From the NCBI GenBank assembly GCA_048538235.1, contig JBLYPX010000001.1, forward strand, positions 679,554 through 743,553: 64,000 nucleotides of DNA. Direction: 5' to 3'. Positions 2,367-26,600 of this stretch are shown one piece after another (position 1 is the first letter of the stretch; each line of letters opens with the position of its first letter). Origin of the DNA: Candidatus Komeilibacteria bacterium. GTDB lineage: Bacteria > Patescibacteriota > Patescibacteriia > UBA1558. A model generated the notes under the pieces. That model was not told the origin of the DNA. It searched no databases and saw only the letters and a program-made list of their open reading frames with translations. Made by a program: the position numbers and the translations under genes.

Positions 2367-5222
<2,856 letters not shown>

Positions 5223-5233
<11 letters not shown>

Positions 5234-5816
5234 AATATCTTGATGAAATAGCTGTTTGGTAACGTATCCATTCAGGTGTATCTAAATCTGCAGTTAATGA
5301 TTGTGTTGTTAGAGCAATTGTAACAAGTGGCTGCTGAGTATCTAATGCTCCGTACAAAACAAAAGGGTTGGTATCTGGTGTTATAAAAAACTTCATTGAA
5401 GTTACAGAAATATCTTCTGGCGTAACATCATAATATGTATCCAACTCACAATTTATAGCCTCACTGACATATCTACAAATCTCTATTTTATTATTTGTAA
5501 AATGGAAACGAATTGATTGATTATCTGTATTCTTTAAAGCAAGATAATTTAATGGTTGAGCGGCTAAATTATCTCCTCCACCAGTATAGAAATCATAATC
5601 TACCCTATTATTCCTAACCTCCCTTGCTATTAATTCAACCACATAACGTGTATCTGCCTGCAACTTTTCAGAATTAGCTAATCTTTTCTGTGCTCTATTA
5701 GTTTGAACAAAAATAGAAACCATAGCAGTCATAGCCATAACAAAAATGGCAGATACAACTAGCATCTCTAATAAAGTAAATCCTTTTTGTTTATTTATAT
5801 TATTCATTATCTCCAA
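5223..5816 (-). CDS. prepilin-type minor pilin / pseudopilin
   Basis: 197 aa. The N-terminus contains ...KQKGFTLLEMLVVSAIFVMAM, matching the class III prepilin signal (G|FTLLE followed by a hydrophobic helix). It uses a TTG start and overlaps its neighbours. Confidence 0.6.
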
Positions 5817-6418
5817 TCAAATATTCTATCTATTAACTCAACTCTTTTAGCATCACCATTAGAGGCTTGCCATTGAACAATAGATTTTAATTCATAACCA
5901 ACTCTAGTTCCAATACCAACACAACTTTCATCTATATCTAAAAATTTTAAGGCATTACTTGGATTGCCAATGTCTGTATCACATATATCTCTAAATTCTA
6001 CCTGCCTCTTAAAACTTGAATAGGTGCCAGTATCTGTGTGACTAAACAATGTATTAGTAACATACAACTTACAAACCTCACATGTATCTATAGCTTCTTC
6101 TACGCCTTCTAATACATAAGAGCTACCATTAATAGTGTCTGTAAACTTAACAATTTGTCTGTAATCATCTGTTGCTGGATCTACTGGCAAACCTGTATCC
6201 CAATCATTTCCAGCCACCCAATTTGAATCCCTGACATTTCTAATTACCTCTATAGCTTCTCGAGCTAAATTAGAAGCAATTAATCTTTTTTCACCATAAT
6301 CTGCAGCTGTTAAATTGTATGAAGTTAAAATCAAAATAGACACTATGCCTATTATCATAATGCCAATAGCTACAATCACCTCCATAAATCCCTGCCCTTT
6401 TTGATCTTTAATTATCAT
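5807..6418 (-). CDS. minor pilin-like protein with atypical prepilin motif (G-F-M-E)
   Basis: 203 aa. The N-terminus MIIKDQKGQGFMEVIVAIGIMIIGIVSIL has Glu at +3 after the putative cleavage Gly rather than the usual +5. Confidence 0.45.
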   Translation of the reverse strand: MIIKDQKGQGFMEVIVAIGIMIIGIVSILILTSYNLTAADYGEKRLIASNLAREAIEVIRNVRDSNWVAGNDWDTGLPVDPATDDYRQIVKFTDTINGSSYVLEGVEEAIDTCEVCKLYVTNTLFSHTDTGTYSSFKRQVEFRDICDTDIGNPSNALKFLDIDESCVGIGTRVGYELKSIVQWQASNGDAKRVELIDRIFDWR

Positions 6419-6420
6419 AA

Positions 6421-6975
6421 TTATTCTAATGTAAAATCTACCTTTCCAGATACTGGTGTAATACTAACCGTACCTGTTTTATTAGTTGCTCTACTATGAG
6501 TCAAACTTAAACTTGTTGTTGAAGATTGTAATACTGGATCAGCTGAACCAAGTACTGTATATATACTCACATTAGATGAGTATGGTTTAAACACTATGTG
6601 TAACTCATCATTTGTACCTGTAATTTGCAATGTGTTAATATCTGGAACCAAACTTCTTGTTTCAAGAACTGCACCATCAGCTGCTAATGTATAGACACCG
6701 TCTGCATTTACATCATTAAATATTACATAATCATTATTGTTCGCTTTAAACATAATTCCATAACCACCAACCCCAACAGATGCATTATTATAATCTGAAC
6801 CTGTTAAAGATAGGGTTTGAACCTTTCTAATATCACTAGCTATTTTTTGTGTTTCTAATCTTAATTCGTTTATAGATTCGCCAGATCTAAAATTAACAAT
6901 AACTATTAAAAACAAACTTAAAAAAACTCCCATCGCTACTACCAACTCTATTAATGTAAATCCTTTTTTATTCAT
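6421..6975 (-). CDS. prepilin-type minor pilin / pseudopilin
   Basis: 184 aa. The N-terminus MNKKGFTLIELVVAMGVFLSLF is a canonical prepilin cleavage/methylation motif. Confidence 0.65.
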   Translation of the reverse strand: MNKKGFTLIELVVAMGVFLSLFLIVIVNFRSGESINELRLETQKIASDIRKVQTLSLTGSDYNNASVGVGGYGIMFKANNNDYVIFNDVNADGVYTLAADGAVLETRSLVPDINTLQITGTNDELHIVFKPYSSNVSIYTVLGSADPVLQSSTTSLSLTHSRATNKTGTVSITPVSGKVDFTLE

Positions 6976-6980
6976 ATGTA

Positions 6981-7751
6981 TTATATAAAATTAAATAATC
7001 CTAAATACCAACTAAGTAATTCTGAACCATAAAGCCAAGTAATAACAGTTGCTAAGCTTAAAAAGGTACCAAAGGCAATTTGACTACCTCTTTCTCTTTT
7101 TTTAGTTATAAGTAAATATATACTAACAATTGCACCTAAGATATATGCTAAAAACAAAGCAACCACCACTCCTGGGAATCCTAATAATAATCCCATGACA
7201 ACACCTAAGCGAATATCTCCACCACCAATCCACTTACCCTTAGATATTACATATTGCCAACCAAACCAAGCTCCACCAAATATGCCAGCTAATAAATAAT
7301 GTACCCAATTTAATCCAAGTATAAATGTAAAAATAATAGCTATCACCATTAAAGGAATTGTAACCTTATCTAAGATCAAATGATGTAAGTGATCAAAAGT
7401 ATAAATAACTATTAAAAAGGAAATAGCTATTAAATAATATAGATATCCTAAAATAGTTAAAGCATTAAAATCTACAACTAAAACAAAATAGCCTAAAATG
7501 AATAATATGGCTGTAATAAGTTCAACTAAAGGATATTGGTATGATATTTTTTCATTACAATACCTACACCTACCTTTTAATAGAAGCCAACTAAAAAGTG
7601 GCACCAAATCCTTTACCCCTAATTGATGCTTACATTTAACACATTTTGACCTAGCATTAACTATACTGTCTTTACTCTTAAGTCTATAAATAACAGCGTT
7701 TAAAAAACTACCTATAATTAAGCCAAATATACCAATAAATACATAATTCAT
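6981..7751 (-). CDS. pilD: prepilin peptidase (A24 family)
   Basis: 256 aa, polytopic. It has the N-terminal tetracysteine motif CVKCKHQ...CRYCNEK and the conserved GGGDIRLG aspartate motif. Confidence 0.85.
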   Translation of the reverse strand: MNYVFIGIFGLIIGSFLNAVIYRLKSKDSIVNARSKCVKCKHQLGVKDLVPLFSWLLLKGRCRYCNEKISYQYPLVELITAILFILGYFVLVVDFNALTILGYLYYLIAISFLIVIYTFDHLHHLILDKVTIPLMVIAIIFTFILGLNWVHYLLAGIFGGAWFGWQYVISKGKWIGGGDIRLGVVMGLLLGFPGVVVALFLAYILGAIVSIYLLITKKRERGSQIAFGTFLSLATVITWLYGSELLSWYLGLFNFI

Positions 7752-7780
7752 AGGTCAATTATACCATTTTTTAGAGTATC

Positions 7781-7812
7781 AAAAAACCCGCTAAATAATG
7801 TTAACGGGTTTT
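7781..7812 (-). terminator. rho-independent terminator/attenuator after the major pilin gene
   Basis: On the minus strand the sequence is AAAACCCGTTAACATTATTTAGCGGGTTTTTT. This gives an 8-bp stem (one G-U pair), a 6-nt loop and a U-tract, about 20 nt downstream of the pilA stop and upstream of pilD. Confidence 0.6.
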
Positions 7813-7830
7813 AAAACTATAATCTAAATA

Positions 7831-8304
7831 TTATAAACCGCTACAAGTAGCTGCGCAGGTAATCGAACCTGGTTTTGCCTTACAAGCCAATCCTGTACCC
7901 CATTCAGTTCTAGCATTTTCTAATGTGAAACAAATTGCATAATCACCTGTAGAAGTACTATTGACTTGGTAGGCGTAAGAATTTGCTGCAACAGGATCAT
8001 CTGGGACTTGTGCCATATAAGTAGTACCAGATGCACTATCTGCCCATCCTGCTACGCTAGACAATGTAAGAGCTCCGCTACCGCCTAAAGCAAGAGCAGC
8101 TGTGGCTTGAGAAGGATAAGCAGCTTGATCATTATAATAAATTTCTAGAGCAGTCTGTATCTGTCTAATATCAGATGTACGACGTGCATCTCTAGCTTTA
8201 GAACGAGCTGAATTCAATGAAACAACTGCTAAAGTAGATAATAAGCCAATAATGGCTATAACTACCAAAAGTTCAATTAATGTGAAACCTTTTTGTTTAT
8301 TCAT
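7831..8304 (-). CDS. pilA: major type IV pilin
   Basis: 157 aa. The N-terminus is MNKQKGFTLIELLVVIAIIGLLSTLAVVSLNSARSKARDARRTSDIRQIQTALEIYY. The C-terminus has a Cys-rich disulfide region (CFTLENARTEWGTGLACKAKPGSITCAATCSGL). It has its own promoter and terminator. Confidence 0.8.
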   Translation of the reverse strand: MNKQKGFTLIELLVVIAIIGLLSTLAVVSLNSARSKARDARRTSDIRQIQTALEIYYNDQAAYPSQATAALALGGSGALTLSSVAGWADSASGTTYMAQVPDDPVAANSYAYQVNSTSTGDYAICFTLENARTEWGTGLACKAKPGSITCAATCSGL

Positions 8305-8415: not shown

Positions 8416-9624
8416 CTAGAATTGGTTAGCTAAGTTGTACATAGGTAAAATAATAGCTGCAACCATACCACCAACTGCCACACCTATCAAAACCATAATA
8501 AATGGCTCTATTAAGCTAGTTAAATTAGCAACAATGTTCTCAATTTCTCTTGAATAAAAGTCTGAAACTTTAGCTAAAACATCATCAAGACGACCTGTTT
8601 TTTCACCAACACTCATCATCTGTGAAACCAGACTAGGAACTATAGGCGATTCAAGAAAAACAGTAGCCACAGAGTCACCATCTTCTACTGTGGTAATTGT
8701 TTCTTCAATAAGCTCTTGGTAAGCCGCATTGCCAACCACCTCATTTACAATTTTAAGGCCAACTGTTAAAGGAACACCACCAACGATTAAAGTAGATAAA
8801 GACCTAGTCATACGAACTAGATATATTCTCTGTAAAAGCTTACCAAAGATAGGTAGTCTTAAAACAATTATATCTTTTGTTTTCTTACCGGCTGGTGTTT
8901 TTACCAAAGCTCTAAAACCAACAATTAACACAACAACAATTATTATTAAAAGCCACCAGTAATTTCTCATAAAAGAACTTGTGCCAATCAATATCTGAGT
9001 CGTCATTGGTAATTCTTGACCAGAGGCAGTTAACATTTCTGTTAACTTTGGAATAACAAATATCATCATAACAACACCAACGCCAATAAGTCCTGAGATG
9101 ATAAAAGCCGGATAAATCATTGCACCCTTTATCTTACTACTTAAATCATAATCCTTTTCTAATTGATCGGCTAAATATTCAAGCACATTATCTAACTTAC
9201 CAGATGTTTCACCACTTTTTATCATACTGATATAGAAGTTAGAAAAGACATTACGATAGCGCTCAAGAGCAACTGAAAACTTTTGACCGCCTTCTACTTC
9301 ATCAGCCAGTTCAGATATGACGGATTTAAAATATTCACTCTCTGTTTGTTTAACAAGTATTCTCAAAGCTTGAACAATAGGCAAAGTAGCACTAATCATA
9401 ACAGATAGCTGTCTTGAAAAGATAACAATATCTTTTTGTTTTACTTTCTGAAATATTGCCAAATTAAAAGAAATGCCTTTGCCTTGACCAGACTCTTCTG
9501 CAATATTGATAATGGTAAGTCCTCTGTCATTTAAAATCTCAGACGCCGATTCAATATTCGGCGCCTCAACCATTCCAGAGGTTATGTCTTCACCTTTATG
9601 TGCTCTGTAACGAAATACTGCCAT
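8416..9624 (-). CDS. pilC: type IV pilus platform protein (GspF family)
   Basis: 402 aa with three TM regions and two GspF-like repeats. It sits in the pilus locus between pilT and pilA. Confidence 0.85.
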   Translation of the reverse strand: MAVFRYRAHKGEDITSGMVEAPNIESASEILNDRGLTIINIAEESGQGKGISFNLAIFQKVKQKDIVIFSRQLSVMISATLPIVQALRILVKQTESEYFKSVISELADEVEGGQKFSVALERYRNVFSNFYISMIKSGETSGKLDNVLEYLADQLEKDYDLSSKIKGAMIYPAFIISGLIGVGVVMMIFVIPKLTEMLTASGQELPMTTQILIGTSSFMRNYWWLLIIIVVVLIVGFRALVKTPAGKKTKDIIVLRLPIFGKLLQRIYLVRMTRSLSTLIVGGVPLTVGLKIVNEVVGNAAYQELIEETITTVEDGDSVATVFLESPIVPSLVSQMMSVGEKTGRLDDVLAKVSDFYSREIENIVANLTSLIEPFIMVLIGVAVGGMVAAIILPMYNLANQF

Positions 9625-10701
9625 TTAGAATTTTTTTAAACTATTTTCAAAATTAACTTTATCTATAACTTCTGGCAAAGCATCCTCTTTAGCAACCTCA
9701 CCTGTTCTAACAAGCTCAACTAAAGACACATCTAGTGCAAACATGCCTAATTCTCTATTACTCTGCAATATACTAAATATCTGATAAAGCTTATCTTCTT
9801 TAATAGATCCAGCTACAGCCTGATTCATTAATAATAGTTCAGCTGCCATCGCAAGTCCTCCACCAACTCTTGGTAATAATCTTTGGATTAAAACTGCCTC
9901 TAAATTATTAACTAGTAACTCTCTAATCCAACCACGCTCACTGTCTGGATAACAGTTAATAATTCTTTCTAAAGCAAGTGTTGATGTTTCTGTTGTCATT
10001 ACCACAAACACAAGCCTACCAGCTTCAGTATGTTTTAGTATTAAATTCCACTCTTCATAATTTGTCACCCCGCTTACCATCATAACGTCTATATCTTGAT
10101 CTAAAGATTGCTCTAAAGCTTCTTTAACACTATTTACATCTTTTCCAACCTCTCTTTGAGAGATAATACTCTTATTATTAGCAAGTAGAAACTCAAGTGG
10201 CTTTTCAATAGTTACTATATTCTCACTTCTTGTATTATTAATATAATTTAATAAAGCTGCCGTTGTAGTTGATCTACCAGAACCAAATGTTCCACCAACA
10301 ACCACTAAGCCTTTGGTTAGATTAGCAATCTTTTCAATATTGTGTGGTAAACCAAGAGTGCTTAAATCTGGTACCATCTCTGGAATTAAATGAATAGATA
10401 ATACTGGTATTCCCTTTTGATAAAAAACCTTTATCTTTAAACGCAACTGATTCATCCATTCATAGATTATGGTTGCATCTTTTTTATCTTTTAATTCAAC
10501 TAAACCTTCCTCAGAAAAAAAGAATCCTAATAATTGCTCAATGAAATCTGGAGTTACCACCTCTTCATTGTCTAAATTAACGAGCTTGCCATTAATTCTA
10601 AGTGAAGGATAATTACCAGCTGAGAAATGTAAATCTGATGCTTTTCTTTCAGCAGCAGTTCCTAATATTCTATTTATAATCAAAGTATCTGTTGTTCCCA
10701 T
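9625..10701 (-). CDS. PilT-like ATPase homolog with substituted catalytic motifs (predicted inactive)
   Basis: 358 aa with clear PilT-family similarity, but key motifs are substituted. Walker A is GGTFGSGRSTT (Lys replaced by Arg). The Walker B region is DVMMVSGVTN (no catalytic Glu). The His box is AGRLVFVVMTTETS (no His). Confidence 0.7.
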   Translation of the reverse strand: MGTTDTLIINRILGTAAERKASDLHFSAGNYPSLRINGKLVNLDNEEVVTPDFIEQLLGFFFSEEGLVELKDKKDATIIYEWMNQLRLKIKVFYQKGIPVLSIHLIPEMVPDLSTLGLPHNIEKIANLTKGLVVVGGTFGSGRSTTTAALLNYINNTRSENIVTIEKPLEFLLANNKSIISQREVGKDVNSVKEALEQSLDQDIDVMMVSGVTNYEEWNLILKHTEAGRLVFVVMTTETSTLALERIINCYPDSERGWIRELLVNNLEAVLIQRLLPRVGGGLAMAAELLLMNQAVAGSIKEDKLYQIFSILQSNRELGMFALDVSLVELVRTGEVAKEDALPEVIDKVNFENSLKKF

Positions 10702-10710
10702 AACAATATA

Positions 10711-11088
10711 TTAACTAATTATTTTTTCTATTTTACTAATAACTTCTGATGGCACAAAGTGTGCTTTTATTAAATAATCTACGGCTCCTAATTGTAAACA
10801 TTTCTGCACATCCTCCCTTTCACTCATATTACTTAAAACAATAACTGGTATGTCTTGTGTATTCTTATCTATTTTCAATTCTTCTAATACTTCAAAGCCA
10901 CTTTTTAATGGAATAAGTAAATCTAATAGTATAATGTCCGGCTTTAACTCTTTAGCCTTTTTTAATGCCTGAATACCATCACTAGCAGACTTTACTTCAT
11001 AACCAGCCTTAGTAAGCTTTGTGGTATACATTTGTAGCAAAAAAGAATCGTCTTCTACTATTAATATTTGTTTAATATTTTCTTCCAT
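10711..11088 (-). CDS. stand-alone CheY-like response regulator receiver
   Basis: 125 aa. It has ILIVEDD, the phospho-acceptor Asp in PDIILLDLLIP, a conserved Ser (VIVLSNMSE) and a conserved Lys (YLIKAH). Confidence 0.8.
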   Translation of the reverse strand: MEENIKQILIVEDDSFLLQMYTTKLTKAGYEVKSASDGIQALKKAKELKPDIILLDLLIPLKSGFEVLEELKIDKNTQDIPVIVLSNMSEREDVQKCLQLGAVDYLIKAHFVPSEVISKIEKIIS

Positions 11089-11092
11089 ATAT

Positions 11093-12865
11093 TTATTCTT
11101 CAGACTCTTCTTGTCTAGTTACACGTATAACTTCTTCTACGGTTGTAATACCTAGGATAGCCTTCATGAAACCATCTTGTTTCATATCATAATAACCTTG
11201 CTTAACCAATTCTTCTCTAAAATTATTTTTATCGAAATCTTCTGAAATAATATTTCTCATCTCTTTATTAATGTAAATAACTTCAGATATTACAAATCTA
11301 CCTTTATACCCTGTTTGCCCGCAATGATTACAACCTTCACCTTTATAGAACTTAAGATTATTCAAATCTACTCCCTCATAATGATACTCTGGTTTTATAT
11401 CACCAACGCTTTCCTTAACTAATTTTATTGCATCAGCTGGTACCTGATCTTCAATTTTACACTTTGGACATATTTTTCTAATAAGTCTTTGTGCGATAAC
11501 AAGATTTAAAGTTGAACCTAATAAAAATGACTCTACGCCCATATCTAAAAATCTAGGCACAGCACCTTCAGCATCGTTAGTATGAAGAGTAGAAAGAACA
11601 AAGTGACCTGTTAAAGCAGCGTGAATAGCAAGCTCTGCTGTTTCACCGTCACGAATCTCACCAACCATGACTATGTCTGGATCTTGTCTAAGCAATGACC
11701 TTAAACCAGATGCAAACTTATATCCAATATCTGCATGTACCTGCGATTGATTAACTCCAGGAATAAAATACTCAACCGGATCTTCTAGGGTAGAAATATT
11801 AACTTCTTCTTTATTTAAAATATCTAGAGCTGAAAAAAGAGTAGTAGATTTACCAGAACCAGTAGGACCAGTAACCAGGAACATTCCATTTGGTTTTTTA
11901 AGCTCTTTATGTAAAACATCTCTTTGGTGTCCCATAAATCCAAGATCTTCTAAAGATGGGGCTTTATCTGGTGATTCTAAAATACGCATAACCACCTTTT
12001 CTTTACCAACCAACGGCAGCGTAGATACACGAAAATCTACATCTTTATCGTGTATATTTAAACGAATACGTCCATCCTGTGGAATACGAGTTTCATCTAT
12101 TTTTAGATTGGATAAAACTTTAATACGAGTAACAATTGCTGAATGAACATAGGCTGGCAATGTAAGAGATGTGTGTAAAATACCATCAATACGATAACGA
12201 ACCCTTGAATCATCACCATATGGTTCAATGTGTATATCTGAAGCAGCGCCATCAACAGCGTGCCTAATAATAACAGATACCATTTTAGAAACTGGAGCAG
12301 ATTTAATTATTTCATCTAAATCTCCTTCTGCATCCTCAAGTTTAATACCTGTACCTTCTTTTTTCTTTTGAAATTTCTGTTCAGCAGCTCCTAACACCTC
12401 TCCCACTTCTTGGGTTAATGTTTCGTATTTCTTTATTGCCCAATCAAAACTAATTGTAGATATTACATAGTATTTAACTTGCAAATTATTCTTTCTTGCT
12501 AAATACTCAATAGCCTCTAAAGCTTGAAAGTTCGTTGGATCAACCAAACCTACTTGCAATTCATCATCTTTACTACCAAAAACAATCATCTGGTAATTAA
12601 GGGCTAAGTCTTGTGGTAAAAACTTCAAATGAGCATCCTCGATAGGCATGTCCTGTAAATTAACATAAGGCACATTAAGGACCTCACCCTTTACTCTAGC
12701 ATACTCTTCTGGTTCAACTAATTTGTCTTCTAAAATAATTTTCTCAATTGGACTGCTGGTTGATTCTTGCTTAGCCAAAATCTCCTGATACTGCTGAGAA
12801 GTTATCAGGCCACGTTCTATTAACTTATCTAATAGAGGATTATTTCCTTTTATTTTAGCTGCCAT
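11093..12865 (-). CDS. pilB: type IV pilus assembly ATPase (GspE family)
   Basis: 590 aa with an N-terminal GSPII_E-N-like domain. Walker A is VTGPTGSGKSTT; the Asp and His boxes are intact (DPDIVMVGEIRD...TGHFVLSTLHTND). The tetracysteine is CPKC...CNHC. Confidence 0.9.
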   Translation of the reverse strand: MAAKIKGNNPLLDKLIERGLITSQQYQEILAKQESTSSPIEKIILEDKLVEPEEYARVKGEVLNVPYVNLQDMPIEDAHLKFLPQDLALNYQMIVFGSKDDELQVGLVDPTNFQALEAIEYLARKNNLQVKYYVISTISFDWAIKKYETLTQEVGEVLGAAEQKFQKKKEGTGIKLEDAEGDLDEIIKSAPVSKMVSVIIRHAVDGAASDIHIEPYGDDSRVRYRIDGILHTSLTLPAYVHSAIVTRIKVLSNLKIDETRIPQDGRIRLNIHDKDVDFRVSTLPLVGKEKVVMRILESPDKAPSLEDLGFMGHQRDVLHKELKKPNGMFLVTGPTGSGKSTTLFSALDILNKEEVNISTLEDPVEYFIPGVNQSQVHADIGYKFASGLRSLLRQDPDIVMVGEIRDGETAELAIHAALTGHFVLSTLHTNDAEGAVPRFLDMGVESFLLGSTLNLVIAQRLIRKICPKCKIEDQVPADAIKLVKESVGDIKPEYHYEGVDLNNLKFYKGEGCNHCGQTGYKGRFVISEVIYINKEMRNIISEDFDKNNFREELVKQGYYDMKQDGFMKAILGITTVEEVIRVTRQEESEE

Positions 12866-12868
12866 TAT

Positions 12869-13204
12869 TTAAAACCTTTCTGGAATAAATTCTTTAACTT
12901 GGAATGGTTTTTCATTACCAATATCGTCATCTTTAACAACTGGCAAACCTACACCACCCTTCATTCTTTTATATATATCATACTCTGTAAAATTCATATC
13001 TAATGCTTTAATTACATCATCCACTTTTTTTGTTTTACGAACCTGCATAAAACCAGGAGACAATAAATCATTATCCAGTGTTTCATCATATTCTACTACT
13101 GCATTTTGACCTAATAACATATATGCCATTGCACCAAAACAGATGACTAGTATCACTATCATAATGGCATTTTTTTGTTTTGATGGTTTTTTCTTAGCTA
13201 GCAT
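12869..13204 (-). CDS. small membrane-anchored protein (possible PilP-like accessory protein)
   Basis: 111 aa with a single N-terminal TM. It sits between the pilO-like gene and pilB with overlapping or coupled boundaries. Confidence 0.35.
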   Translation of the reverse strand: MLAKKKPSKQKNAIMIVILVICFGAMAYMLLGQNAVVEYDETLDNDLLSPGFMQVRKTKKVDDVIKALDMNFTEYDIYKRMKGGVGLPVVKDDDIGNEKPFQVKEFIPERF

Positions 13205-13883
13205 CGTCTTGATCTAAATAGTAAGTTCTAAAATTAAATGAATATTTTTTAGTAGCTATTTCTTCTCCGTCTTGACCAACATAACTAGGTTCAGATAAAG
13301 CACTAAAGTTAACTGTTACTAAATTAAATAGTCTAACATTATCTTCTATTCTCTTTAGCAAACCTTTAAACTCATTATACCCTCCACCTTCAACAGATAT
13401 CTCAATATCTACTGCCTTAAGTTCTGAAGGTAGTCCGTCCCAATCCATAAAATCTGCTACTTGGAATTCGATTAATTGATCTATATCTGTTTTAACATCA
13501 TTAATAGATATTTGCTCTAGAATAAATCCACTTTCAGAAACAAGTCTTTCAATTTCCACAAACAAAGATTGTACATTAGCTTTATCTGGTAATATATTAT
13601 TTATCTTTTCTAATTCTCTGGAATTCTCCGCACTAGTAATATATGAATACTTTTCCTCAAGTGTTTTTAATTTACTTAAGTATAATTTTTTGTCATCTCT
13701 TTCCTGTCTCAATTCTGGCACCCTATTATTATTTTGATGTTGTATGTCGCTAAACTTTGGCCACAACACAAGCCAGACTCCCAAAACAAATACAATAACA
13801 ACAAAACCAATACTAATATATTTATAATATGTATTAAGGGTATAATTTAATTTACTTATTTCTTTTTCTTCTTTCTCTATCAT
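13194..13883 (-). CDS. PilO-like bitopic pilus alignment protein
   Basis: 229 aa with a single TM near the N-terminus and a coiled-coil-rich region. It sits after the pilM and pilN-like genes. Confidence 0.5.
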   Translation of the reverse strand: MIEKEEKEISKLNYTLNTYYKYISIGFVVIVFVLGVWLVLWPKFSDIQHQNNNRVPELRQERDDKKLYLSKLKTLEEKYSYITSAENSRELEKINNILPDKANVQSLFVEIERLVSESGFILEQISINDVKTDIDQLIEFQVADFMDWDGLPSELKAVDIEISVEGGGYNEFKGLLKRIEDNVRLFNLVTVNFSALSEPSYVGQDGEEIATKKYSFNFRTYYLDQDDAS

Positions 13884-13884
13884 A

Positions 13885-14742
13885 TTATTTCTTTTCTACA
13901 AAGTTTTGATCATAAAATACATCCCTGTATAAATTAACCAGGGCATTATAGCTAATACCAATACCTTCATCGAGTGATGCTTCAGCCACACTAAAACCAC
14001 CAAATATTTCTGGGAATCTCTCATAAGCAATTAATTGCTCAGCTACGGTTGTAAAACTTTTAGCATAGGATGCTAAATTAATATCTGAGTTAACTAATGA
14101 AGCGGTAAATCCACTGTAATATACTTCTGGTAAGGTGGTCTTTTCTAAAACATCAAAAAAGTTTGTCCAATATACATGACTTCTTAATAGACTATCTACT
14201 GCAGATAGTTTCAACTGCCAGCTCTCAGCATCATTTAAATCACCACTATACTTTGCTATTTCTTTATCTAACTCTTCAATCTCAACTTCTAATGCTAAAC
14301 CTTCTTCCGTAACTTTTAATCCGTAAAAAGAAATAACTGTAAATATACCAACTAAAATTATAATAGTAACAATCAACCAAACAGACATCATAGAAATTAA
14401 TTTGTTGGTTGAACGAAATCTAAAGGTTGCTGGTAATAAATTAACATCAAAACCTTTTCTAACTTTTTCTGAACCACCCTCTTCCAATTTCTTTTTAAGT
14501 ATTGGTTCTTTTTTAAGTTTTTCTTTCTTTACTTTAACCTCTTGAATAATTGGTTCTTTAATATCTTCTTTTGGCAAATCTGCCATCTGTTCTTTTGCAA
14601 CAGCTAACAAGTCTATTGATTCACCATCTTTTTTACCGTTAACAGGGTGTAATAAACTACGTAAAAAACTACCTTGCTTTTTTACTTTAGGTTTTTTTTC
14701 TTCCCTCTTTTCTTCTTTTTTATTTTGTAGAAAATCTACCAT
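13885..14742 (-). CDS. PilN-like bitopic protein with extended Lys-rich N-terminal region
   Basis: 285 aa. It has a single TM (LISMMSVWLIVTIIILVGIF) followed by a coiled coil. The start is 2 nt after the pilM stop. Confidence 0.5.
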   Translation of the reverse strand: MVDFLQNKKEEKREEKKPKVKKQGSFLRSLLHPVNGKKDGESIDLLAVAKEQMADLPKEDIKEPIIQEVKVKKEKLKKEPILKKKLEEGGSEKVRKGFDVNLLPATFRFRSTNKLISMMSVWLIVTIIILVGIFTVISFYGLKVTEEGLALEVEIEELDKEIAKYSGDLNDAESWQLKLSAVDSLLRSHVYWTNFFDVLEKTTLPEVYYSGFTASLVNSDINLASYAKSFTTVAEQLIAYERFPEIFGGFSVAEASLDEGIGISYNALVNLYRDVFYDQNFVEKK

Positions 14743-14744
14743 AA

Positions 14745-15881
14745 TTACATATCTCGCATAGCCAAGCCAACAGCTACGGCCATACGATTACCTATTTTAT
14801 CTAACATTGGTTTTAAGTCTGGAGAATACTCTAATTTATCCCATGGATTACCAATATATACTGGTACATTAAATAGACTTAAGAAATAATCTGGCAAGTT
14901 TGGTAAAAAGGCTGAACCACCAGATAAAAGTATTTTAGAAACTCCTTGTGAGGATTGTCCTCTATACATGTCAAAAACATAACGAACCTCATTAATAATT
15001 GGTCCAAGCGATGCTTCAATAGTTTTTGGTATTCCCTTCTTTGTTTCCCCTAAAACAAGACCAAAATCTCTCTTGAATTGTTCTGCCCTATCTTCACTAA
15101 TATTTAAACTTGCGGCAATTGCTTTTGTAACAGTTAAACCACCAACGTCTATGCTTCTATTAAGAACTGGCAAGCCGTTATCTACAATAGAAATATCTGT
15201 TGTTATAGAACCAATATCTACAATCATGGTTAGCTCTTTATCTTTACCAAGCAGAGCTCTAGACATTGCAAAAGCTTCTGTTTCTAAAGACAAAAGATTA
15301 AGACCTGCTCCTTTAAACACTTCTAAATATTTATTAACTAAAGCTTTTGGAGCAGCCGTTACCAACACCTTAGTATAATCTTTTTGTTGAGAAATAATCT
15401 TACTAGAACCACCCTCATCACCTAGTTCTGCACCTTCTTTAACTTCTTCTTTTTTCTTAAATAAACCTGAGCCAGTTTTTTCTTTAACAGTATCTTCTCT
15501 ATCTACCAGTTTCCAATCTAGTATCATATCCTCCAGTGGTAATGGTATGTATTTTTTTGCTTCCCATTTAATAGCTTCCGGCATTTCTTTATCTGGAAGC
15601 TTTGGTAGATTAATTAAAAGGGTAAAGACTGCAAAAGTTGGTAAAGCCGCAATAGCTTGTGTTGTAGAAGTGCCAGCTTTTTCCATTAACTTTTTTAACA
15701 CATCTATTAATCTTTGCTTACTCTCCGGAGTATTCTCATGAATAATATCGTTCGCAACATCAACATAACCAAAAGTATCCAGAATGGTTTTTTTTCCATC
15801 ATTTGTAAGTTGGACCAGCTTAATGCTGGCCGTACCAATATCCACTCCTAAATATGAATTCTTTTTAGAAAATAATCCCAT
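14745..15881 (-). CDS. pilM: type IV pilus assembly protein PilM (actin-like ATPase fold)
   Basis: 378 aa. The N-terminus SYLGVDIGTASIKLVQL is the PilM/FtsA-like phosphate-1 motif. Confidence 0.8.
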   Translation of the reverse strand: MGLFSKKNSYLGVDIGTASIKLVQLTNDGKKTILDTFGYVDVANDIIHENTPESKQRLIDVLKKLMEKAGTSTTQAIAALPTFAVFTLLINLPKLPDKEMPEAIKWEAKKYIPLPLEDMILDWKLVDREDTVKEKTGSGLFKKKEEVKEGAELGDEGGSSKIISQQKDYTKVLVTAAPKALVNKYLEVFKGAGLNLLSLETEAFAMSRALLGKDKELTMIVDIGSITTDISIVDNGLPVLNRSIDVGGLTVTKAIAASLNISEDRAEQFKRDFGLVLGETKKGIPKTIEASLGPIINEVRYVFDMYRGQSSQGVSKILLSGGSAFLPNLPDYFLSLFNVPVYIGNPWDKLEYSPDLKPMLDKIGNRMAVAVGLAMRDM

Positions 15882-22832: not shown

Positions 22833-23639
22833 TTATATTGCTAATTGCAAACTACTACCCAATGTCTGTAATTTATTCCAGTTAAACGAATTGTCCTTAG
22901 CATCTACATAGGCCATCAATATATATTTAGGCTTATCTTCGTCTAACATATTATCTATTATAGCCATAACCACCATAGCTGAATCTTCTTTAGACAACTT
23001 AAGCTTGTCTACTAAAACCATCTCTAAGGCTAAACTCAGCAAAGCTGGCGTAGGTTTTGCTTCTATCATGGTTTCTGCAATCTCATCTGTATATTTAACA
23101 GCTATATATTTTTTTAATATACCTTTAAACCTTGAATCTTGTTGCCATGTTTTTACTAACTCTCCCGTACGTGCCAACCAAGATAAAACAACAACAACTT
23201 CCTCTGCCTTGCCTAGTCCTAAACTTTTCCAAAGATAGTTTCTAATTCTTGATACATCGCCGCTAGAAATTCTTCCTAGTTCTTCCATAGACTTTGTTAA
23301 AGATTTTGGCTTAATAAAATCTTTCCAAATAGTATTCACTGGAACAGAAACACTTTCATCCTCTAATTCTTCTTCCTCTTCCTCAAAATCTTCGTCACCA
23401 TCTACATAAAATGGCTCGATAATATTTTCACTCAAGGCATCAATAAAATCGTTAGCTTTTTCTTCTTCAAAATTAAGATCTTCAATTAAAAAATCAACTG
23501 CTTCTTTATTACTTGCTTCGCCTTCTAAAATTGCCTGTGCTAATTCACCAGGAAAATAATTATATTTTAAAGCTAATAAATTCAAATCTCCTAGAACTTC
23601 TTTTCTATTTAAATATTCTTCTATTTCTTTATTCTTCAT
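22833..23639 (-). CDS. acidic hypothetical protein, translationally coupled to the upstream giant ORF
   Basis: 268 aa with an Asp/Glu-rich stretch (DGDEDFEEEEEELEDES). Its start overlaps the stop of ORF 23629..28722 by 11 nt. Confidence 0.5.
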   Translation of the reverse strand: MKNKEIEEYLNRKEVLGDLNLLALKYNYFPGELAQAILEGEASNKEAVDFLIEDLNFEEEKANDFIDALSENIIEPFYVDGDEDFEEEEEELEDESVSVPVNTIWKDFIKPKSLTKSMEELGRISSGDVSRIRNYLWKSLGLGKAEEVVVVLSWLARTGELVKTWQQDSRFKGILKKYIAVKYTDEIAETMIEAKPTPALLSLALEMVLVDKLKLSKEDSAMVVMAIIDNMLDEDKPKYILMAYVDAKDNSFNWNKLQTLGSSLQLAI

Positions 23640-26600
23640 CTTCTTGCTCGCTTGTATAATTAGAAACTATTTGTTCTATCTCATCGCCAGAAAGACCCTC
23701 TTCCTCTAAAATCACTTTCATATCTACATCCCCTCCACCGCTTGTATTAATATTACTAATCCTCTGATTAACATTAGCTATTTTATCTTGCATTTCATTG
23801 CTAAACGCTGCTTGACTAGCTCCCATCTTTTTAACTTGGGAAGATTGCTGTTCAAACCATTTCTTCATAGCCAAGAACTGTGCCATAGATAATGGTTTAC
23901 TTAAGAATGAACCACTACTTGTTTTGGGTATATTAATACCTCCCTTATTCGAGCTTTGCTTTGCTTTGCCAGCGTTAAGCATTCCTGGTGGTATATTGCT
24001 TAAAAATTGATCCATCTGTCCAGATATAACATTCATAGCCTCCTCGTCAGTACTGTTTGATGTATTATCTGTTTGTGCTAACAATTTTCTCAACTCTTCC
24101 AAAAACTTTTTATTATCTGGCTCGTTCTTTTCTTCTTCAGGTAAATTTATTTCTATTTCTTTTTCTAGAGCTTGTAAACTATTTTGTATCTGCTCTTTTG
24201 TACTATTCCTATCTGCTATCACTTTAGACAAATCACTAACCCTATCCTTAACTGAACTTTGAGTATCTCTGGCTGCTTGAGTGCTTCTAGTTGCTTCAGA
24301 GCTAGCAACAGACTCCTTCTCTGAATCTCTTGATGATGTTTGCTTGTCTTGGCCAGCACTTTCTGCCTTAGAAGTTGAAACTGTTTCTACAGATGAAGAT
24401 GATTCTCCTTGTACAGAACTTTGAGTATCTCTGGCTGCTTGAGTGCTTCTAGTTGCTTCAGAGCTAGCAACAGACTCCTTCTCTGAATCCCTTGAAGATG
24501 TTTGCTTGTCTTGGCCAGCACTTTCTGCCTTAGAAGTTGAAACTGTTTCTACAGATGAAGATGATTCTCCTTGTACAGAACTTTGAGTATCTCTGGCTTT
24601 TTCAGCACTGCTCATTGATTCTGAACTAGCCGTTGATCTATCTGAATCTCTTGATGATGTTTCTTTATTAGAACCAGCTTTCTCAGTATTTGTTGTTGAT
24701 CTGGACACCTCGTTTGCTCTAGCCCTTGCCTCTTCTGCTTTGGTTTTTTGCTTGCTAGCTAAAGATTCTAAACTCTTTATTTCTTTTTCATGTGATGTTT
24801 TATATTTCTGATTTTCTGTAGAAATCCTAGAAGCTTCTTTTCGTAAAGCATTTGCCTTCTTAGTAGCTTCATTATATCTATACATAGCTCCTTCTGGATT
24901 TACATAGTTTGGATCTTCATATTCCTTTTTAGCCTGGGCAGCATCTTTTTCATACGATTCCGCTCTACCAGTCAAGTCTTTAACCTTGCTATTATTATCA
25001 TTATAGCTCTTTGCAAATAAAGCTTTTGTAGCGTTTATTACATCTTGCGTTTTATAATAATCATCTTCTTTGGCTACAGCTTTATTCTCTTCAGACTGTC
25101 GCTTAATTTCTTCTTTATTCATAGCTTTGTTTACAACACTACTTTGGTAAACATCTAGAGCATCTTCATCTCTATCTGCATCATACCCCTGACCACCATT
25201 AACAATCATAAATTCTTCTTTTTGCTCATTGCTCATACTAGACCAATCATTTAAAGCTTGTTCCCTTAATCTTTCTTCCGTCTTCTGACGCTCTTGTTCT
25301 GAGTTAGCAGCTCTTATATTCTCTTTCCGCTCTTTTTTCATTGCCTTACGTTCTTTTCTTGATTCAAAGAAACTCTTCCCCTTTTCTACGCTTACACCAC
25401 CCTCACTGACTGTCATATCTTTTGCATTAATAATCCTATCTACAAAGGGTTGAGGAAGTTTAGGTTTAGATTTATCTATAACACCGTTCTTTCCAACATT
25501 GGCAATAGCGTCTGCCAAATATTCTTTTCTAATATCACCCTCAGTCATGTTTGGTTGATTTCTGTCTTCTCTAATATATTGACGGGCACTTTCTTTTTCA
25601 GCAACGGTCATACTATTCCACACATCTTCTTGAATAGAGCCATCCGAATCGACACCTTCAATGGTACTATGAGCTTTCTCATGACGAATTAACTGTTTGG
25701 CGTCTTTTCCTTTTCTTGATTTATTAACCAAAACCAAACCATCTGATTTTATTCTTTCTTCATCATTTAAATTGTTTAACAATTGATCAACACCACTAAC
25801 TCTTTCACCTGATTCAGTCTCAATTCCATGCAAGGTATCATTCTTTACTTGTTGTAAGTCTGCGTCTTTGCTTGGTTTTACGCCAAAATATTCTAAAGCT
25901 GTTCTGATATCTTCATCCTCCTCTGCTGATTCAAGCTCACTTTGATAAGCTTGCACCATTTCTTTCATAGCACTAGCTGCTTTAATAGCTTCTTCACCGT
26001 TAACAAACATACCAGCCTTTCTTTTCTGACCGGTTAAACCACCTTCTACTCTTTCATTCAGTTCATTGAAATCTACTGCTGTCATATTACCACTTCTAGC
26101 AAGCGATCCCATTGTAATACCTCCTTGAGTTGATTTACTTATTTTTGAATATTCTGAATATTGATCCTGATTTAAATATTCACTACTCTTTTCTTCCTCA
26201 CTTAAAGATTTATATTTGTCTGAGTTATAGAAACGCTCCCCTAAGACACTAGCATTATTTGCAACAAACTCATCCTTATTTACTTCTCTGGTTTCATCAC
26301 CCTTCTTAAGAACAACATTACTGTTTTCATTTCTACTAGTAGCTTCTTGATCAACCTGCCAATCTTTACCTTCTTCACTCATATCTGCTCTAACCATGTC
26401 TGTTGGCATAAGATTACTAATTTCATTTTCTACAGCTAAACCTGTATTTAAAATCTGATCGTCTGAAACTTGAGAATCTACCATATAATCTTTAGTGGAT
26501 TTCTTTACCTCTACATCACTAATCTTTTTAGGTTCTCCTTGAACACTTATACTTTCATTGGATAAATTTTGATCATAATATTTAGAGGCCTCGTTGCTTA

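Follow-up and report, generated by a model that had tools for sequence, protein, structure and literature searches.

A PilT look-alike with substituted catalytic residues in the retraction-motor position of a Patescibacteria type IV pilus locus

Introduction

In the textbook account, type IV pili are retracted by the motor PilT. The ultra-small, host-dependent Patescibacteria have few conserved surface machines; these pili are one of them and have been invoked in host attachment, twitching and DNA uptake. What, then, is to be made of a pilus locus in which the protein in the PilT position has the fold and length of PilT and nearly all of its catalytic positions changed? The locus lies in a 64-kb stretch of DNA (the window in what follows) taken from an 860-kb contig of a Candidatus Komeilibacteria bacterium, and the protein is referred to here as PilT'.

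In genome reconstructions, such as those for the class ABY1 type species, the gene appears as 'PilT (retraction ATPase)' with no further remark (PMC11809585). The automated labels of related proteins range over PilT, TadA, generic ATPase and hypothetical, an inconsistency that hides the loss of catalytic residues. Our literature search found no published description of a catalytically inactive or degenerate natural PilT, and the papers on Patescibacteria pili that it brought up make no mention of one. The catalytic residues have been reported to be completely conserved across the PilT/VirB11-like family (PMC5424180), and the PilT paralogs of Myxococcus and Geobacter are all reported to have intact motifs. 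The PilT of the T4P-1 system of Nanosynbacter lyticus TM7x, a member of the Saccharibacteria, likewise has Walker A and B boxes that are reported to be conserved (PMC11623550).

The pilus locus and the identity of PilT'

The genes and motifs under discussion are collected in Table 1. The stop codon of PilT' and the start codon of pilC are contiguous (TAAATG); on the other side lies the gene of a CheY-like receiver, whose acidic pocket (D13, D14 and D56) is intact on a reading of the sequence and in which S86 and K108 are also present. The gene order of the block extending from pilM to the small conserved gene (12869..15881) is repeated in the related loci L001-L012. The original prediction described PilT' as a protein of 358 residues with good conservation of fold, flanked by a CheY-like receiver and pilC, and in these respects it was accurate: the ORF is intact, the modelled structure has the PilT fold and the domain matches of both neighbours agree.

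Table 1. Features of the pilus locus, motifs of PilT' and the second PilB-type gene (window coordinates)
Feature	Position	Strand	Remarks
PilT', PilT-fold protein, candidate pseudo-ATPase	9625..10701	-	358 aa, intact ORF (ATG to TAA); catalytic residues substituted
N-terminal-domain segment with two putative arginine-finger positions	10390..10437	-	K89 (PaPilT R82), H104 (PaPilT R97)
Walker A/P-loop GGTFGSGRSTT, aa 136-146	10264..10296	-	Lys to Arg (R143); P-loop Thr (PilT_Gm T133) to Phe139
Asp box TIEKPLEF, aa 164-171	10189..10212	-	Asp to Lys (K167); both Glu kept (E166, E170)
Atypical Walker B region DVMMVSGVTN, aa 205-214	10060..10089	-	Gly to Ser (S210), catalytic Glu to Gly (G211), MRD triplet gone
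His box AGRLVFVVMTTE, aa 227-238	9988..10023	-	T220 to A227, H222 to R229, H229 to T236 (PaPilT numbering)
CheY-like single-domain response regulator	10711..11088	-	Pfam Response_reg, 87 bits
PilB1, canonical extension ATPase	11093..12865	-	MshEN N-terminal domain; every motif intact
Small conserved gene, 111 aa	12869..13204	-	Gene order
PilO-like gene	13194..13883	-	Weak Pfam PilO match
PilN-position gene	13885..14742	-	Gene order
pilM	14745..15881	-	Pfam PilM_2
PilC platform protein	8416..9624	-	Two T2SSF domains
Pilin and prepilin-peptidase cluster	4370..8304	-	N_methyl matches; includes two further genes
Major pilin	7831..8304	-	Pilin cluster
PilD prepilin peptidase	6981..7751	-	Syntenic L001 genes annotated A24 peptidase and N_methyl
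Minor pilins	6421..6975 and 5223..5816	-	Pilin cluster
PilB2, orphan second PilB/GspE-type ATPase	57367..59058	+	563 aa; all catalytic motifs and CxxC..CxxC intact

Phmmer searches of the PDB align residues 9-352 of PilT' with Aquifex PilT (2EWV) at E 8.7e-64 and find the Pseudomonas aeruginosa protein (3JVU/3JVV) at E 4.3e-55; the alignments have 30-37% identity and zero gaps through the motif region. The AF2 monomer model is of high confidence (pLDDT 91.8, pTM 0.87) and its top Foldseek matches are PilT structures, with TM scores of 0.80-0.87. The match to Pfam T2SSE (PF00437) is at 60 bits, above the cutoff of 24.9; the score with the NCBIfam pilT_fam model (TIGR01420) is 279.5 bits against a cutoff of 319.1 (P0097, a canonical Patescibacteria PilT, scores 440.7, and the PilT'-like P0033 and P0064 score 288.9 and 336, respectively). 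An extension ATPase of the PilB/GspE kind was considered as an alternative identity and rejected: PilT' has 358 residues against ~560-590, no MshEN match and no CxxC pairs, and its E-value with PilB structures is 1e-11, against 1e-64 with PilT. PilT' is thus a two-domain, ~350-residue protein lacking the N-terminal extensions of PilB and GspE, and its gene belongs to a type IVa pilus locus that also has pilB and pilC.

The substituted catalytic site

The comparison was made on an eight-site signature consisting of two putative arginine fingers, the Walker A Lys, the Asp and Glu of the Asp box, the Walker B Glu and the two His-box His residues. The canonical baseline, comprising 82 fetched PilT genes from ~80 genomes of many phyla, reads RRKDEEHH in all but one case, and the lone exception is RHKDEEHH. 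PilT' reads KHRKEGRT. Seven of the eight positions are therefore changed, the sole survivor being the Mg-binding Glu of the Asp box, and the Walker A Lys, the Walker B Glu, both His and both putative fingers of the PilT/PilU family are missing. In P. aeruginosa (PaPilT) numbering, K136 has become R143 in a P-loop (GTFGSGRST) that keeps its glycines and its Ser/Thr, D160 has become K167, and E204, the catalytic Glu, has become G211; E159 (E166) and the Mg-coordinating E163 (E170) are retained. The identification of K89 and H104 as arginine-finger equivalents is inferred from their 15-residue spacing, which is that of R271 and R286 in PilB_Gm (PMC5424180); the corresponding positions are Arg in 45 and 44, respectively, of 45 canonical PilTs from CPR bacteria.

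The replacements extend beyond the eight sites. In the Geobacter metallireducens protein (PilT_Gm), T133, R195, D161, T221 and H230 are residues of the closed subunit interface, and H230 contacts both the gamma-phosphate and T221 (PMC6858323). The PilT' equivalents of all five are replaced, with A227 standing at the T221 position. In the C-terminal region, the AIRNLIRE-type motif, by which PilT is told apart from PilU, reads AVAGSIKE in PilT', AVRSxIRxG in its wider clade and AVRxVIREGK in canonical PilTs of CPR bacteria. Set beside the canonical structures (Aquifex 2EWV/2GSZ, P. aeruginosa 3JVV, G. metallireducens PilT4 6OJX and Thermus PilT2 5FL3), PilT' thus has the same two-domain fold, the same length and the same slot between pilB and pilC, and it shares the P-loop glycines, the Asp-box Glu, R81 (Gm numbering), the QRLLP..GGG segment and part of the AIRNLIRE region; in contrast, the catalytic residues, the P-loop Thr and the closed-interface T221, R195 and D161 are gone.

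Could a misplaced alignment have generated these substitutions? A shift of register that restored the Lys, Glu and His is ruled out by the gap-free phmmer alignments and by invariant anchor columns around each motif: a MAFFT alignment of nine sequences (canonical PilTs, PilB1 and PilB2 included) places G137, G140, G142, T146, E166, P168, E170 and D203 on their flanks. The three substituted motifs of the original prediction (GGTFGSGRSTT, DVMMVSGVTN and AGRLVFVVMTTE) are in the sequence as quoted, and they stand in the multiple alignment with PilT and PilB for which that prediction had called. The changes of D160, R82 and R97 (to K167, K89 and H104) were not on its list.

One clade of degenerate PilTs

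PilT' is far from alone. About 240 distinct relatives of the same degenerate kind, from Komeili-, Falkow-, Buchanan- and Kerfeldbacteria, form one clade, and 63 of the best 150 clusters at 50% identity are stand-alone representatives of it. Long contigs with a PilT' gene include JBGCVJ010398870.1 (443 kb), contig_23211 of ERZ25039549 (823 kb) and others of 881, 802, 710, 609, 579 and 565 kb. Their length is steady, at 345-363 residues, across these diverged members. A neighbour-joining tree computed without the motif columns separates 76 degenerate from 45 canonical sequences perfectly, on a branch of length 0.216, and this supports a single origin of the degenerate PilTs. Elsewhere in the Patescibacteria, where pilus loci are similarly compact, the PilTs that were fetched are conventional: those of Doudna-, Berkel-, Wolfe-, Yanofsky-, Davies-, Taylor- and Kaiserbacteria and of Saccharimonadales each present the full RRKDEEHH.

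The order pilM-N-O-x-pilB-cheY-pilT'-pilC recurs in Komeilibacteria, in Falkow-/Buchanan-bacteria and in further relatives, and Doudnabacteria have a canonical PilT in the same pilB-cheY-pilT-pilC slot. By synteny, PilT' is the positional ortholog of PilT, the type IVa retraction ATPase, and the CheY-like receiver, occupying an identical position in CPR loci of both kinds, is not peculiar to the degenerate version. The sister clade of canonical PilTs was considered as a source of second-locus paralogs and discarded, because its member P0107 sits in a pilN-O-x-pilB-pilT-pilC locus of its own.

The clade is not uniform in what it has lost. Orthologs in related genomes, to which the original prediction had pointed as a check, share the Walker A substitution (Arg in 65 of 76 members of the first set, all within the single clade), but the Walker B Glu persists in much of the wider clade, in 45 of the same 76 and in 50 of 98 in another set; P0064 is one of the proteins that keep it. 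The Walker A Lys, too, survives in some 10-40% of the wider clade. Residual activity may therefore persist in part of the membership, and function may differ across the family. Other features are nearly constant: the P-loop Thr position is Phe or Tyr in 215 of 240 sequences of the clade (Thr in 122 of 133 canonical PilTs) and E170 is retained in 238 of 240. Conservation within the clade also extends to the N-terminal domain and the C-terminal helices, to the glycines and Ser/Thr of the P-loop, to both Glu residues of the Asp box and to the R81-E164 contact. A compensatory exchange of charge between K167 and D201, replacing the canonical D161-R195 interface salt bridge, was examined in the 240 sequences and rejected as a general feature, because D/E is the pair most often seen and the two positions are negatively associated (odds ratio 0.44).

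Candidate partner ATPases

Three T2SSE-family genes are found in the window by phmmer and tblastn: PilT', PilB1 and PilB2. The description of PilT' as the only PilT homolog of its pilus locus accordingly extends to the 64 kb, in which neither method finds a second PilT-type gene; tblastn with three canonical PilTs returns just these three genes, and on this result a canonical PilT concealed in the window, for instance by a frameshift, was also discounted. Both PilB1 and PilB2 are fully canonical by their motifs, as the original prediction had it for PilB2. A protein 100% identical to PilB2 is present at NCBI in a Candidatus Komeilibacteria MAG, on a contig of 860,445 bp.

The first alternative to be weighed is that PilT' docks on the pilus machine as an adaptor and recruits a canonical ATPase of the PilT or PilU type that is encoded elsewhere. 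The precedent is an engineered one: in Vibrio cholerae, ATPase-dead PilT (Walker A K136 and Walker B E204 variants) still supports PilU-dependent retraction (PMC6762196). The likeness is that a non-hydrolysing PilT remains a component of the machine, with the same two residues hit (in PilT', the inactivity is predicted); the difference is that the V. cholerae proteins were made by point mutation in the laboratory and have PilU encoded in the same genome, while PilT' is natural, altered at many sites, ancient and clade-wide, with no PilU or second PilT seen in the window. Nature offers a parallel in tandem PilT-PilT fusions (P0257, P0308 and P0275), in which one module has a Walker A of the GSGR type and lacks the His box. 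In P0257 and P0308 the other half is canonical, which indicates that dead and live PilT modules can cooperate; unlike PilT', the dead module is there joined to a live one, in a protein of ~700 residues that falls outside the stand-alone clade. The window, moreover, covers 64 kb of the 860-kb contig, and the absences within it extend to those 64 kb. Several negative results speak against such a partner: ten related loci show no second PilT up to 10 kb away from PilT', and none of 45 canonical PilT clusters matches a PilT'-bearing contig in length. The matches listed from species-representative genomes (at least 80 loci) are solely canonical PilTs of other lineages, with none from Komeili-, Falkow-, Buchanan- or Kerfeldbacteria among them, and the closed genomes of the ABY1 type species, those of Patescibacterium danicum among them, yield just one K02669 pilT match, of the degenerate or the canonical type (PMC11809585, Table S5). 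We consider an adaptor of this kind unlikely.

The second alternative takes up a proposal of the original prediction and assigns the work to PilB1 or to PilB2. One of these would be bifunctional in the manner of the Tad ATPase CpaF, and PilT', as a switch factor or as its partner in a hetero-oligomer, would reverse or release it. PilT and PilB, however, are unlike each other in N-terminal architecture, and we know of no description of mixed PilT/PilB rings. That both PilBs are canonical is in favour of this proposal, as is the finding, in two relatives, of orthologs of PilB2 and PilT' on the same contig (443,492 bp in one, 110,939 bp in the other), which shows co-inheritance within Komeilibacteria. 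On the other hand, PilB2 lies between ftsH and a DUF7544 gene, with no pilC or pilM nearby, and the ABY1 type genomes show only one pilB match (PMC11809585). Bifunctionality itself is documented for CpaF (PMC11300603). The resemblance of CpaF and of motor-independent retraction of the V. cholerae competence pilus (cited in PMC11623550) to the present case is one of pilus dynamics without PilT-catalysed hydrolysis, but those systems lack PilT, while the organism considered here keeps a PilT-shaped protein under strong selection. This proposal also strikes us as improbable.

Selection and site-wise constraint

The estimates of dN/dS, from diverged pairs that are not free of saturation, are 0.054 for PilT', 0.055 for pilB, 0.053 for pilC, 0.052 for pilM and 0.10 for ligA, and show purifying selection on PilT' that is, by this measure, as strong as that on its pilus neighbours. 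It is the distribution of the constraint that sets PilT' apart. The ratio of entropies between degenerate and canonical sequences is 3.6 from Walker B to the His box, but close to one at either end of the protein (1.07 for the N-terminal domain, 1.08 for the C-terminus). Within the close subclade, variability is among the highest at 167, 211, 213 and 214, all once catalytic positions, the last three with 1.8-2.2 bits against a protein mean of 0.53, although R143, F139, K89, H104 and T236 are fixed. In PilT' and its close relatives the position of the catalytic Glu is occupied by Gly, Arg, Gln, Asn, Ser or Glu, and thus evolves freely. The region past the His box is also relaxed in the degenerate clade, including the canonical Gln cluster (Q255, Q256, Q258 and Q262 in window numbering), so that docking may be altered as well, if this region contacts PilC.

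These patterns bear on a third alternative, that PilT' is still an active retraction ATPase with a non-canonical chemistry, in which Arg takes the part of the Lys in the P-loop and the catalytic base is a different acidic residue. The invariance of the P-loop glycines, of the Ser/Thr and of both Asp-box Glu residues would fit such an enzyme, as would the conservation of the Arg itself and the retention of the Walker B Glu by many members of the clade. But an essential base is hardly to be reconciled with free variation at the catalytic-Glu position, the alignment of the degenerate clade has no new conserved acidic residue near position 211, and both His-box His residues, both putative fingers and the closed-interface residues are lost. 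The lost residues have been reported to be fully conserved in the family, and proteins mutated at them lose both activity and function (PMC5424180, PMC5065972, PMC6762196). We hold continued catalysis to be very unlikely. That PilT' is a decaying, functionless relic, for which loss of catalytic motifs and a score under the pilT_fam cutoff would be expected or at least congenial, is rejected on its low dN/dS and region-specific constraint, its intact ORF and constant length in ~240 diverged sequences and its conserved synteny abutting pilC, and we give it practically no credence.

A proposed role for PilT'

PilT', then, is in our judgement probably a non-catalytic PilT ortholog that has been retained because it forms a ring with a structural or regulatory function in the pilus machine. 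The pseudo-ATPase of the original prediction, with a PilT fold and a non-catalytic role, is in keeping with what has been found: seven of eight catalytic positions replaced in an intact fold, under purifying selection, in a large monophyletic clade. Fold kept, catalytic residues lost and selection maintained are also the marks by which pseudo-enzymes are recognized.

How such a protein might work can be sketched from its pattern of conservation and loss. PilT' is predicted to be unable to hydrolyse ATP, because it has lost the Walker A Lys and the catalytic Glu, along with the His that senses the gamma-phosphate and the two putative arginine fingers, and unable to form the canonical, ATP-dependent 'closed' subunit interface, because the equivalents of PilT_Gm T133, R195, D161, T221 and H230 are replaced. 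It may nevertheless still bind nucleotide or phosphate, since the Arg-containing P-loop and the Mg-binding Glu are conserved. PilT' would still assemble as a ring and dock on the PilC/PilM platform in alternation with PilB, and this static ring would act as a gate that displaces PilB. The displacement would lead either to slow, motor-independent disassembly of the pilus or to a locked pilus, and the neighbouring CheY-like receiver is a candidate input to the gate.

Pilus retraction in this organism may consequently not be powered by PilT, a matter that hinges on whether an active PilT is encoded elsewhere in the genome. A more sweeping version is that the whole branch, comprising Komeili-, Falkow-, Buchanan- and Kerfeldbacteria and their relatives, is without an active PilT, that a nucleotide-insensitive, PilT-shaped ring sits on the PilC platform and works passively, as a clutch or a brake, and that retraction is driven by something other than a retraction ATPase. 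We entertain this tentatively, as a conjecture that may well prove too broad.

Implications

A well-conserved look-alike in the slot of the retraction motor suggests, as far as sequences can, a branch-wide mode of retraction that operates without a working PilT motor. If there are lineages that have only a degenerate PilT, functional models of Patescibacteria pili would need revision, and these bacteria would provide a natural system for finding out what PilT does beyond hydrolysing ATP and how motor-independent retraction works. Should the branch have no active PilT at all, it would amount to a natural experiment separating the structural role of PilT from its role as a motor, with a bearing on DNA uptake and host attachment.

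Catalytic residues and alignment register

In a phmmer search of all PDB chains, the closest family of PilT', the degenerate PilT-fold protein of the window, is PilT (Aquifex 2EWV, E = 8.7e-64; P. aeruginosa 3JVU/3JVV, 4.3e-55); PilB and GspE structures, in contrast, are matched at only ~1e-10. The alignments with the PilT structures are gapless from the N-terminal domain to the His box. When PilT' and two clade relatives are aligned (MAFFT) with four canonical PilTs (two from Patescibacteria, the others from Streptococcus sanguinis and Corallococcus) and the ATPase cores of PilB1, the extension ATPase of the locus, and PilB2, a second PilB/GspE-type ATPase, invariant columns (G137, G140, G142, T146, E166, P168, E170 and D203) lie on either side of every motif. 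Thus the register is fixed, and it does not place Lys, Glu and His at the catalytic positions. In the numbering of P. aeruginosa PilT, the Walker A Lys K136 is R143 in PilT', the Asp-box Asp D160 is K167, the catalytic Glu E204 is G211, and the His-box H222 and H229 are R229 and T236. Two further positions, 15 residues apart, are changed (R82 to K89 and R97 to H104); this spacing, which matches that of the PilB arginine fingers R271/R286 (PMC5424180), suggests that they are former arginine-finger positions.

The sole survivor among the eight catalytic positions is the Mg-coordinating Asp-box Glu (E163, which is E170 in PilT'). The original prediction had three PilT signatures substituted; they are, with seven of the eight positions changed. 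Written as two putative arginine fingers, Walker A Lys, Asp-box Asp and Glu, catalytic Glu and two His-box His, the signature is RRKDEEHH in 81 of 82 canonical genes (from ~80 genomes of many phyla, among the matches listed), RHKDEEHH in the remaining one, and KHRKEGRT in PilT'. According to McCallum et al. (PMC5424180), the Walker motifs, catalytic Glu, two arginine fingers and Asp-box Glu are completely conserved in the family. The substitutions are therefore real and far beyond normal variation, and PilT' fails on five sequence features that define active PilT family members. It was also correctly taken for the only PilT homologue of the pilus locus: searches of the 64-kb window with phmmer and tblastn turn up no further gene of PilT type, whole or fragmentary.

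Fold and family scores

The AlphaFold2 model of PilT', built on 76 clade sequences (mean pLDDT 91.8, pTM 0.87), resembles Thermus PilT2, Geobacter PilT4 and the P. aeruginosa and Aquifex PilTs in the PDB (TM 0.80-0.87), with P. aeruginosa PilU at TM 0.74-0.77. This bears out the earlier impression of good fold-level conservation; as modelled, the fold is intact and the protein is no wreck. PilT' passes the Pfam T2SSE threshold, but scores 279.5 bits against NCBIfam pilT_fam, for which the curated cutoff is 319.1 and a canonical Patescibacteria PilT reaches 440.7. Because of that sub-threshold score, its relatives carry mixed public names: PilT, TadA, 'T2SS/T4P/T4SS ATPase' or hypothetical.

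The pilus locus and orthology

The window is AT-rich (~33% GC), and its compact type IVa pilus locus reads, in order, pilM, a PilN-position gene, a PilO-like gene, a small conserved gene, pilB, a CheY-like receiver, PilT', pilC, the major pilin, pilD and minor pilins. The PilT' ORF is intact (358 aa) and lies, as predicted, between the receiver and pilC, its TAA stop directly adjoining the pilC ATG. The phospho-acceptor pocket of the receiver is intact (D13, D14, D56, S86, K108); no histidine kinase was found within the 64-kb window.

Coordinates of features in the window
Feature	Position	Strand	Remark
Type IVa pilus locus	4.4-15.9 kb	-	
ligA + gatCA	to ~0.6 kb		low-coordinate side of the locus; gene names follow L001, an annotated relative locus
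pilC	8416..9624	-	next after PilT'
PilT'	9625..10701	-	intact ORF, 358 aa
CheY-like receiver	10711..11088	-	between pilB and PilT'
pilB (PilB1)	11093..12865	-	N-terminal MshEN-type domain
Small conserved gene	12869..13204	-	no Pfam match
pilD (prepilin peptidase)		-	after major pilin, before minor pilins
Giant ORF	23629..28722	-	1697 aa
BNR-repeat paralogue	28907..30139	+	
BNR-repeat paralogue	30334..31560	+	
Giant ORF	31634..40258	-	2874 aa
PilB2	57367..59058	+	563 aa
Valyl-tRNA synthetase	60536..63670	-	1044 aa

All loci retrieved (from the relative at 92% identity, from Komeilibacteria with a 350-aa form, from Falkow-/Buchananbacteria and from one further genome with an 823-kb contig) have the degenerate gene in the arrangement pilM-N-O-x-pilB-cheY-pilT'-pilC, with pilins, pilD and, as a rule, ligA after it. 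Doudnabacteria have a fully canonical PilT in this slot, receiver gene included, and the canonical clade that lies closest to the degenerate one in the tree is located in its own pilus locus. PilT' is thus the ortholog of PilT rather than an additional paralog, and its catalytic site was dismantled in place.

Some other features of these loci may be recorded. The small gene (91-118 aa) holds its place between the PilO-like gene and pilB throughout the relative loci L001-L012, and is found in Patescibacteria pilus loci with dead as well as canonical PilT. The MshEN-type domain of PilB1 (Pfam E 9e-12) has a weak match to the MshE-related c-di-GMP-binding motif; PilB2 has no significant MshEN match. 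Genes of the bAvd/23S_rRNA_IVP family lie within the minor-pilin cluster of a Falkow-/Buchananbacteria locus (L007, 15608-15955) and, on another contig, beside a canonical PilT (L014, 1197-1574); bAvd is an accessory protein of diversity-generating retroelements.

A clade of degenerate PilTs

Ten near relatives (67-97% identity) carry the same set of substitutions, as had been thought worth checking, and dozens more at 35-46% identity have a related pattern: a GP[FY]GSGR[ST] P-loop, an IE[KQRN]PIE Asp box, a Walker B lacking Gly and MRD, and no His-box histidines. Canonical Patescibacteria PilTs, lower in the same match list, have GPTGHGKSTT, IEDPIE, VGEMRD and ETGHLVFATLHTN. With all motif columns deleted, a neighbour-joining tree still splits perfectly into 76 degenerate and 45 canonical sequences (internal branch 0.216), which points to a single origin of the degenerate PilTs. 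When 1.84 billion representatives were searched with a clade profile, the best 150 clusters (50% identity) included 63 degenerate proteins that stand alone and measure 345-363 aa, and a search seeded with a Falkow-/Buchananbacteria member yielded ~96 further degenerate sequences. The comparison in total took in 240 distinct degenerate sequences and 133 canonical ones. The degenerate sources are named Candidatus Komeilibacteria, Falkowbacteria, Buchananbacteria, Kerfeldbacteria and 'Parcubacteria/Patescibacteria group'; these correspond to GTDB class ABY1. Elsewhere, three canonical PilT genes stand in tandem in a genome of the Fimbriimonadales (Armatimonadota; L091, 8903-12137).

Selection and site constraint

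Comparing the window with the 92%-identical relative gives a dN/dS (Nei-Gojobori) of 0.054 for PilT', 0.055 for pilB, 0.053 for pilC, 0.052 for pilM, 0.077 for gatA, 0.10 for ligA and 0.30 for the pilin, ratios that are approximate because dS is near saturation (~1.0-1.3), although their ranking is clear. The ratio of degenerate to canonical entropy is 1.07 in the N-terminal domain and 1.08 in the C-terminal helices, 1.6 from P-loop to Asp box, 2.1 after the His box and 3.6 from Walker B to His box. In the eleven nearest sequences, positions 167, 211, 213 and 214 vary almost freely (1.8-2.2 bits, the mean over the protein being 0.53), and R143, F139, K89, H104 and T236 are fixed. Freed ex-catalytic sites beside fixed ones are the signature of a protein that, by this measure, has lost catalysis and retains a different function.

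Alternative readings

A serious alternative is that PilT' is an adaptor for an active paralog, so far unseen, encoded in another part of the genome, since an ATPase-dead V. cholerae PilT still serves as an adaptor for PilU (PMC6762196) and the representative library holds tandem PilT-PilT fusions with one half dead and the other live. Weighing weakly against it, no active paralog was found in the window or ten flanking loci, and the closed genomes of the ABY1 type species have a single pilT hit, which may be of the degenerate or the canonical type (PMC11809585, Table S5). The fusions themselves (P0250-P0257, P0275, P0305, P0308 and P0318) are ~700-1000 aa long; in P0257, P0305, P0308 and P0275 one half is degenerate (e.g. 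a GSGR Walker A and no His box) and the other canonical; each such polypeptide would be a natural pairing of a dead and a live PilT.

PilB2, correctly described as an intact GspE-family ATPase, is a complete canonical PilB/GspE-type protein with all motifs and CxxC..CxxC pairs and 40% identity to PilB1. It lies beside ftsH and a gene for a DUF7544 membrane protein, and neither pilC nor pilM is nearby to partner it; in two relatives it shares a long contig with the PilT' ortholog. A protein with 100% identity to PilB2 comes from an 860,445-bp contig of a Candidatus Komeilibacteria MAG, which places the source organism in the Patescibacteria (candidate phyla radiation). As partners of PilT', PilB1 and PilB2 would be candidates at most. 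Residual ATPase activity of PilT' itself is unlikely, but clade members in which the Glu of Walker B and the Lys of Walker A are retained may have some. That PilT' is a functionless relic is contradicted by a dN/dS on a par with pilB, pilC and pilM.

Other genes of the window

The valyl-tRNA synthetase has a complete His_Phos_1 (histidine-phosphatase) domain (aa 438-626) inserted into its catalytic tRNA-synt_1 domain. Neither giant ORF matches Pfam (E<=1e-4). The BNR-repeat paralogues also carry Por_Secre_tail, the type IX secretion C-terminal sorting domain, in an organism that is thought to lack an outer membrane.

Mechanism and proposed role

A literature search over 8 million full texts yielded no description of a naturally inactivated PilT ortholog. 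Unlike PilT', the PilT of TM7x (Saccharibacteria) is reported to have intact Walker boxes (PMC11623550), as are all characterised PilT paralogs of Geobacter and Myxococcus to have intact motifs; other Patescibacteria pilus papers simply label the gene retraction ATPase. PilT' belongs to the PilT family by descent and acts inside it, on this reading as a lineage-wide PilT pseudo-ATPase.

In PilT, the ATP-dependent 'closed' interface is made by contacts H230-T221, T221-T133, R195-D161 and P271-D32 (Geobacter metallireducens numbering); only H230 touches ATP and only E164 Mg (McCallum et al. 2019, PMC6858323). T133, T221, H230, R195 and D161 are essentially invariant in canonical PilTs (n=133). 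In the degenerate set (n=240), the T133 position is F/Y in 215, T221 is G/S/A, H230 is N/S/T/D/E, R195 is mostly E/Q/D and D161 is variable, with R81, E164, L269 and P271 kept. K167/D201 of PilT' was considered as a charge-swapped D161-R195 inter-subunit salt bridge, but a general swap is ruled out, the pairing occurring in only 16 of the 240 sequences, the window and its closest relatives included.

The original reading of PilT' as a pseudo-ATPase is supported by catalytic losses, intact fold, selection and clade-wide sharing. Judged from its residues, PilT' should be incapable of hydrolysing ATP or of linking the open/closed cycle of the interface, by which PilC is turned, to nucleotide state, and it probably forms a static ring. 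There would be room for binding nucleotide or phosphate without hydrolysis, since the P-loop glycines and Ser/Thr are invariant, a conserved Arg stands in for the Lys and the two Glu of the Asp box are present; Walker A Lys-to-Arg mutants often bind and do not hydrolyse. The most likely role of PilT' would then be that of a non-catalytic ring. Such a ring may compete with PilB for the PilC/PilM platform and, by that competition, gate pilus disassembly or hold the pilus, with the receiver protein, adjacent and with its phospho-acceptor pocket intact, as its plausible input.
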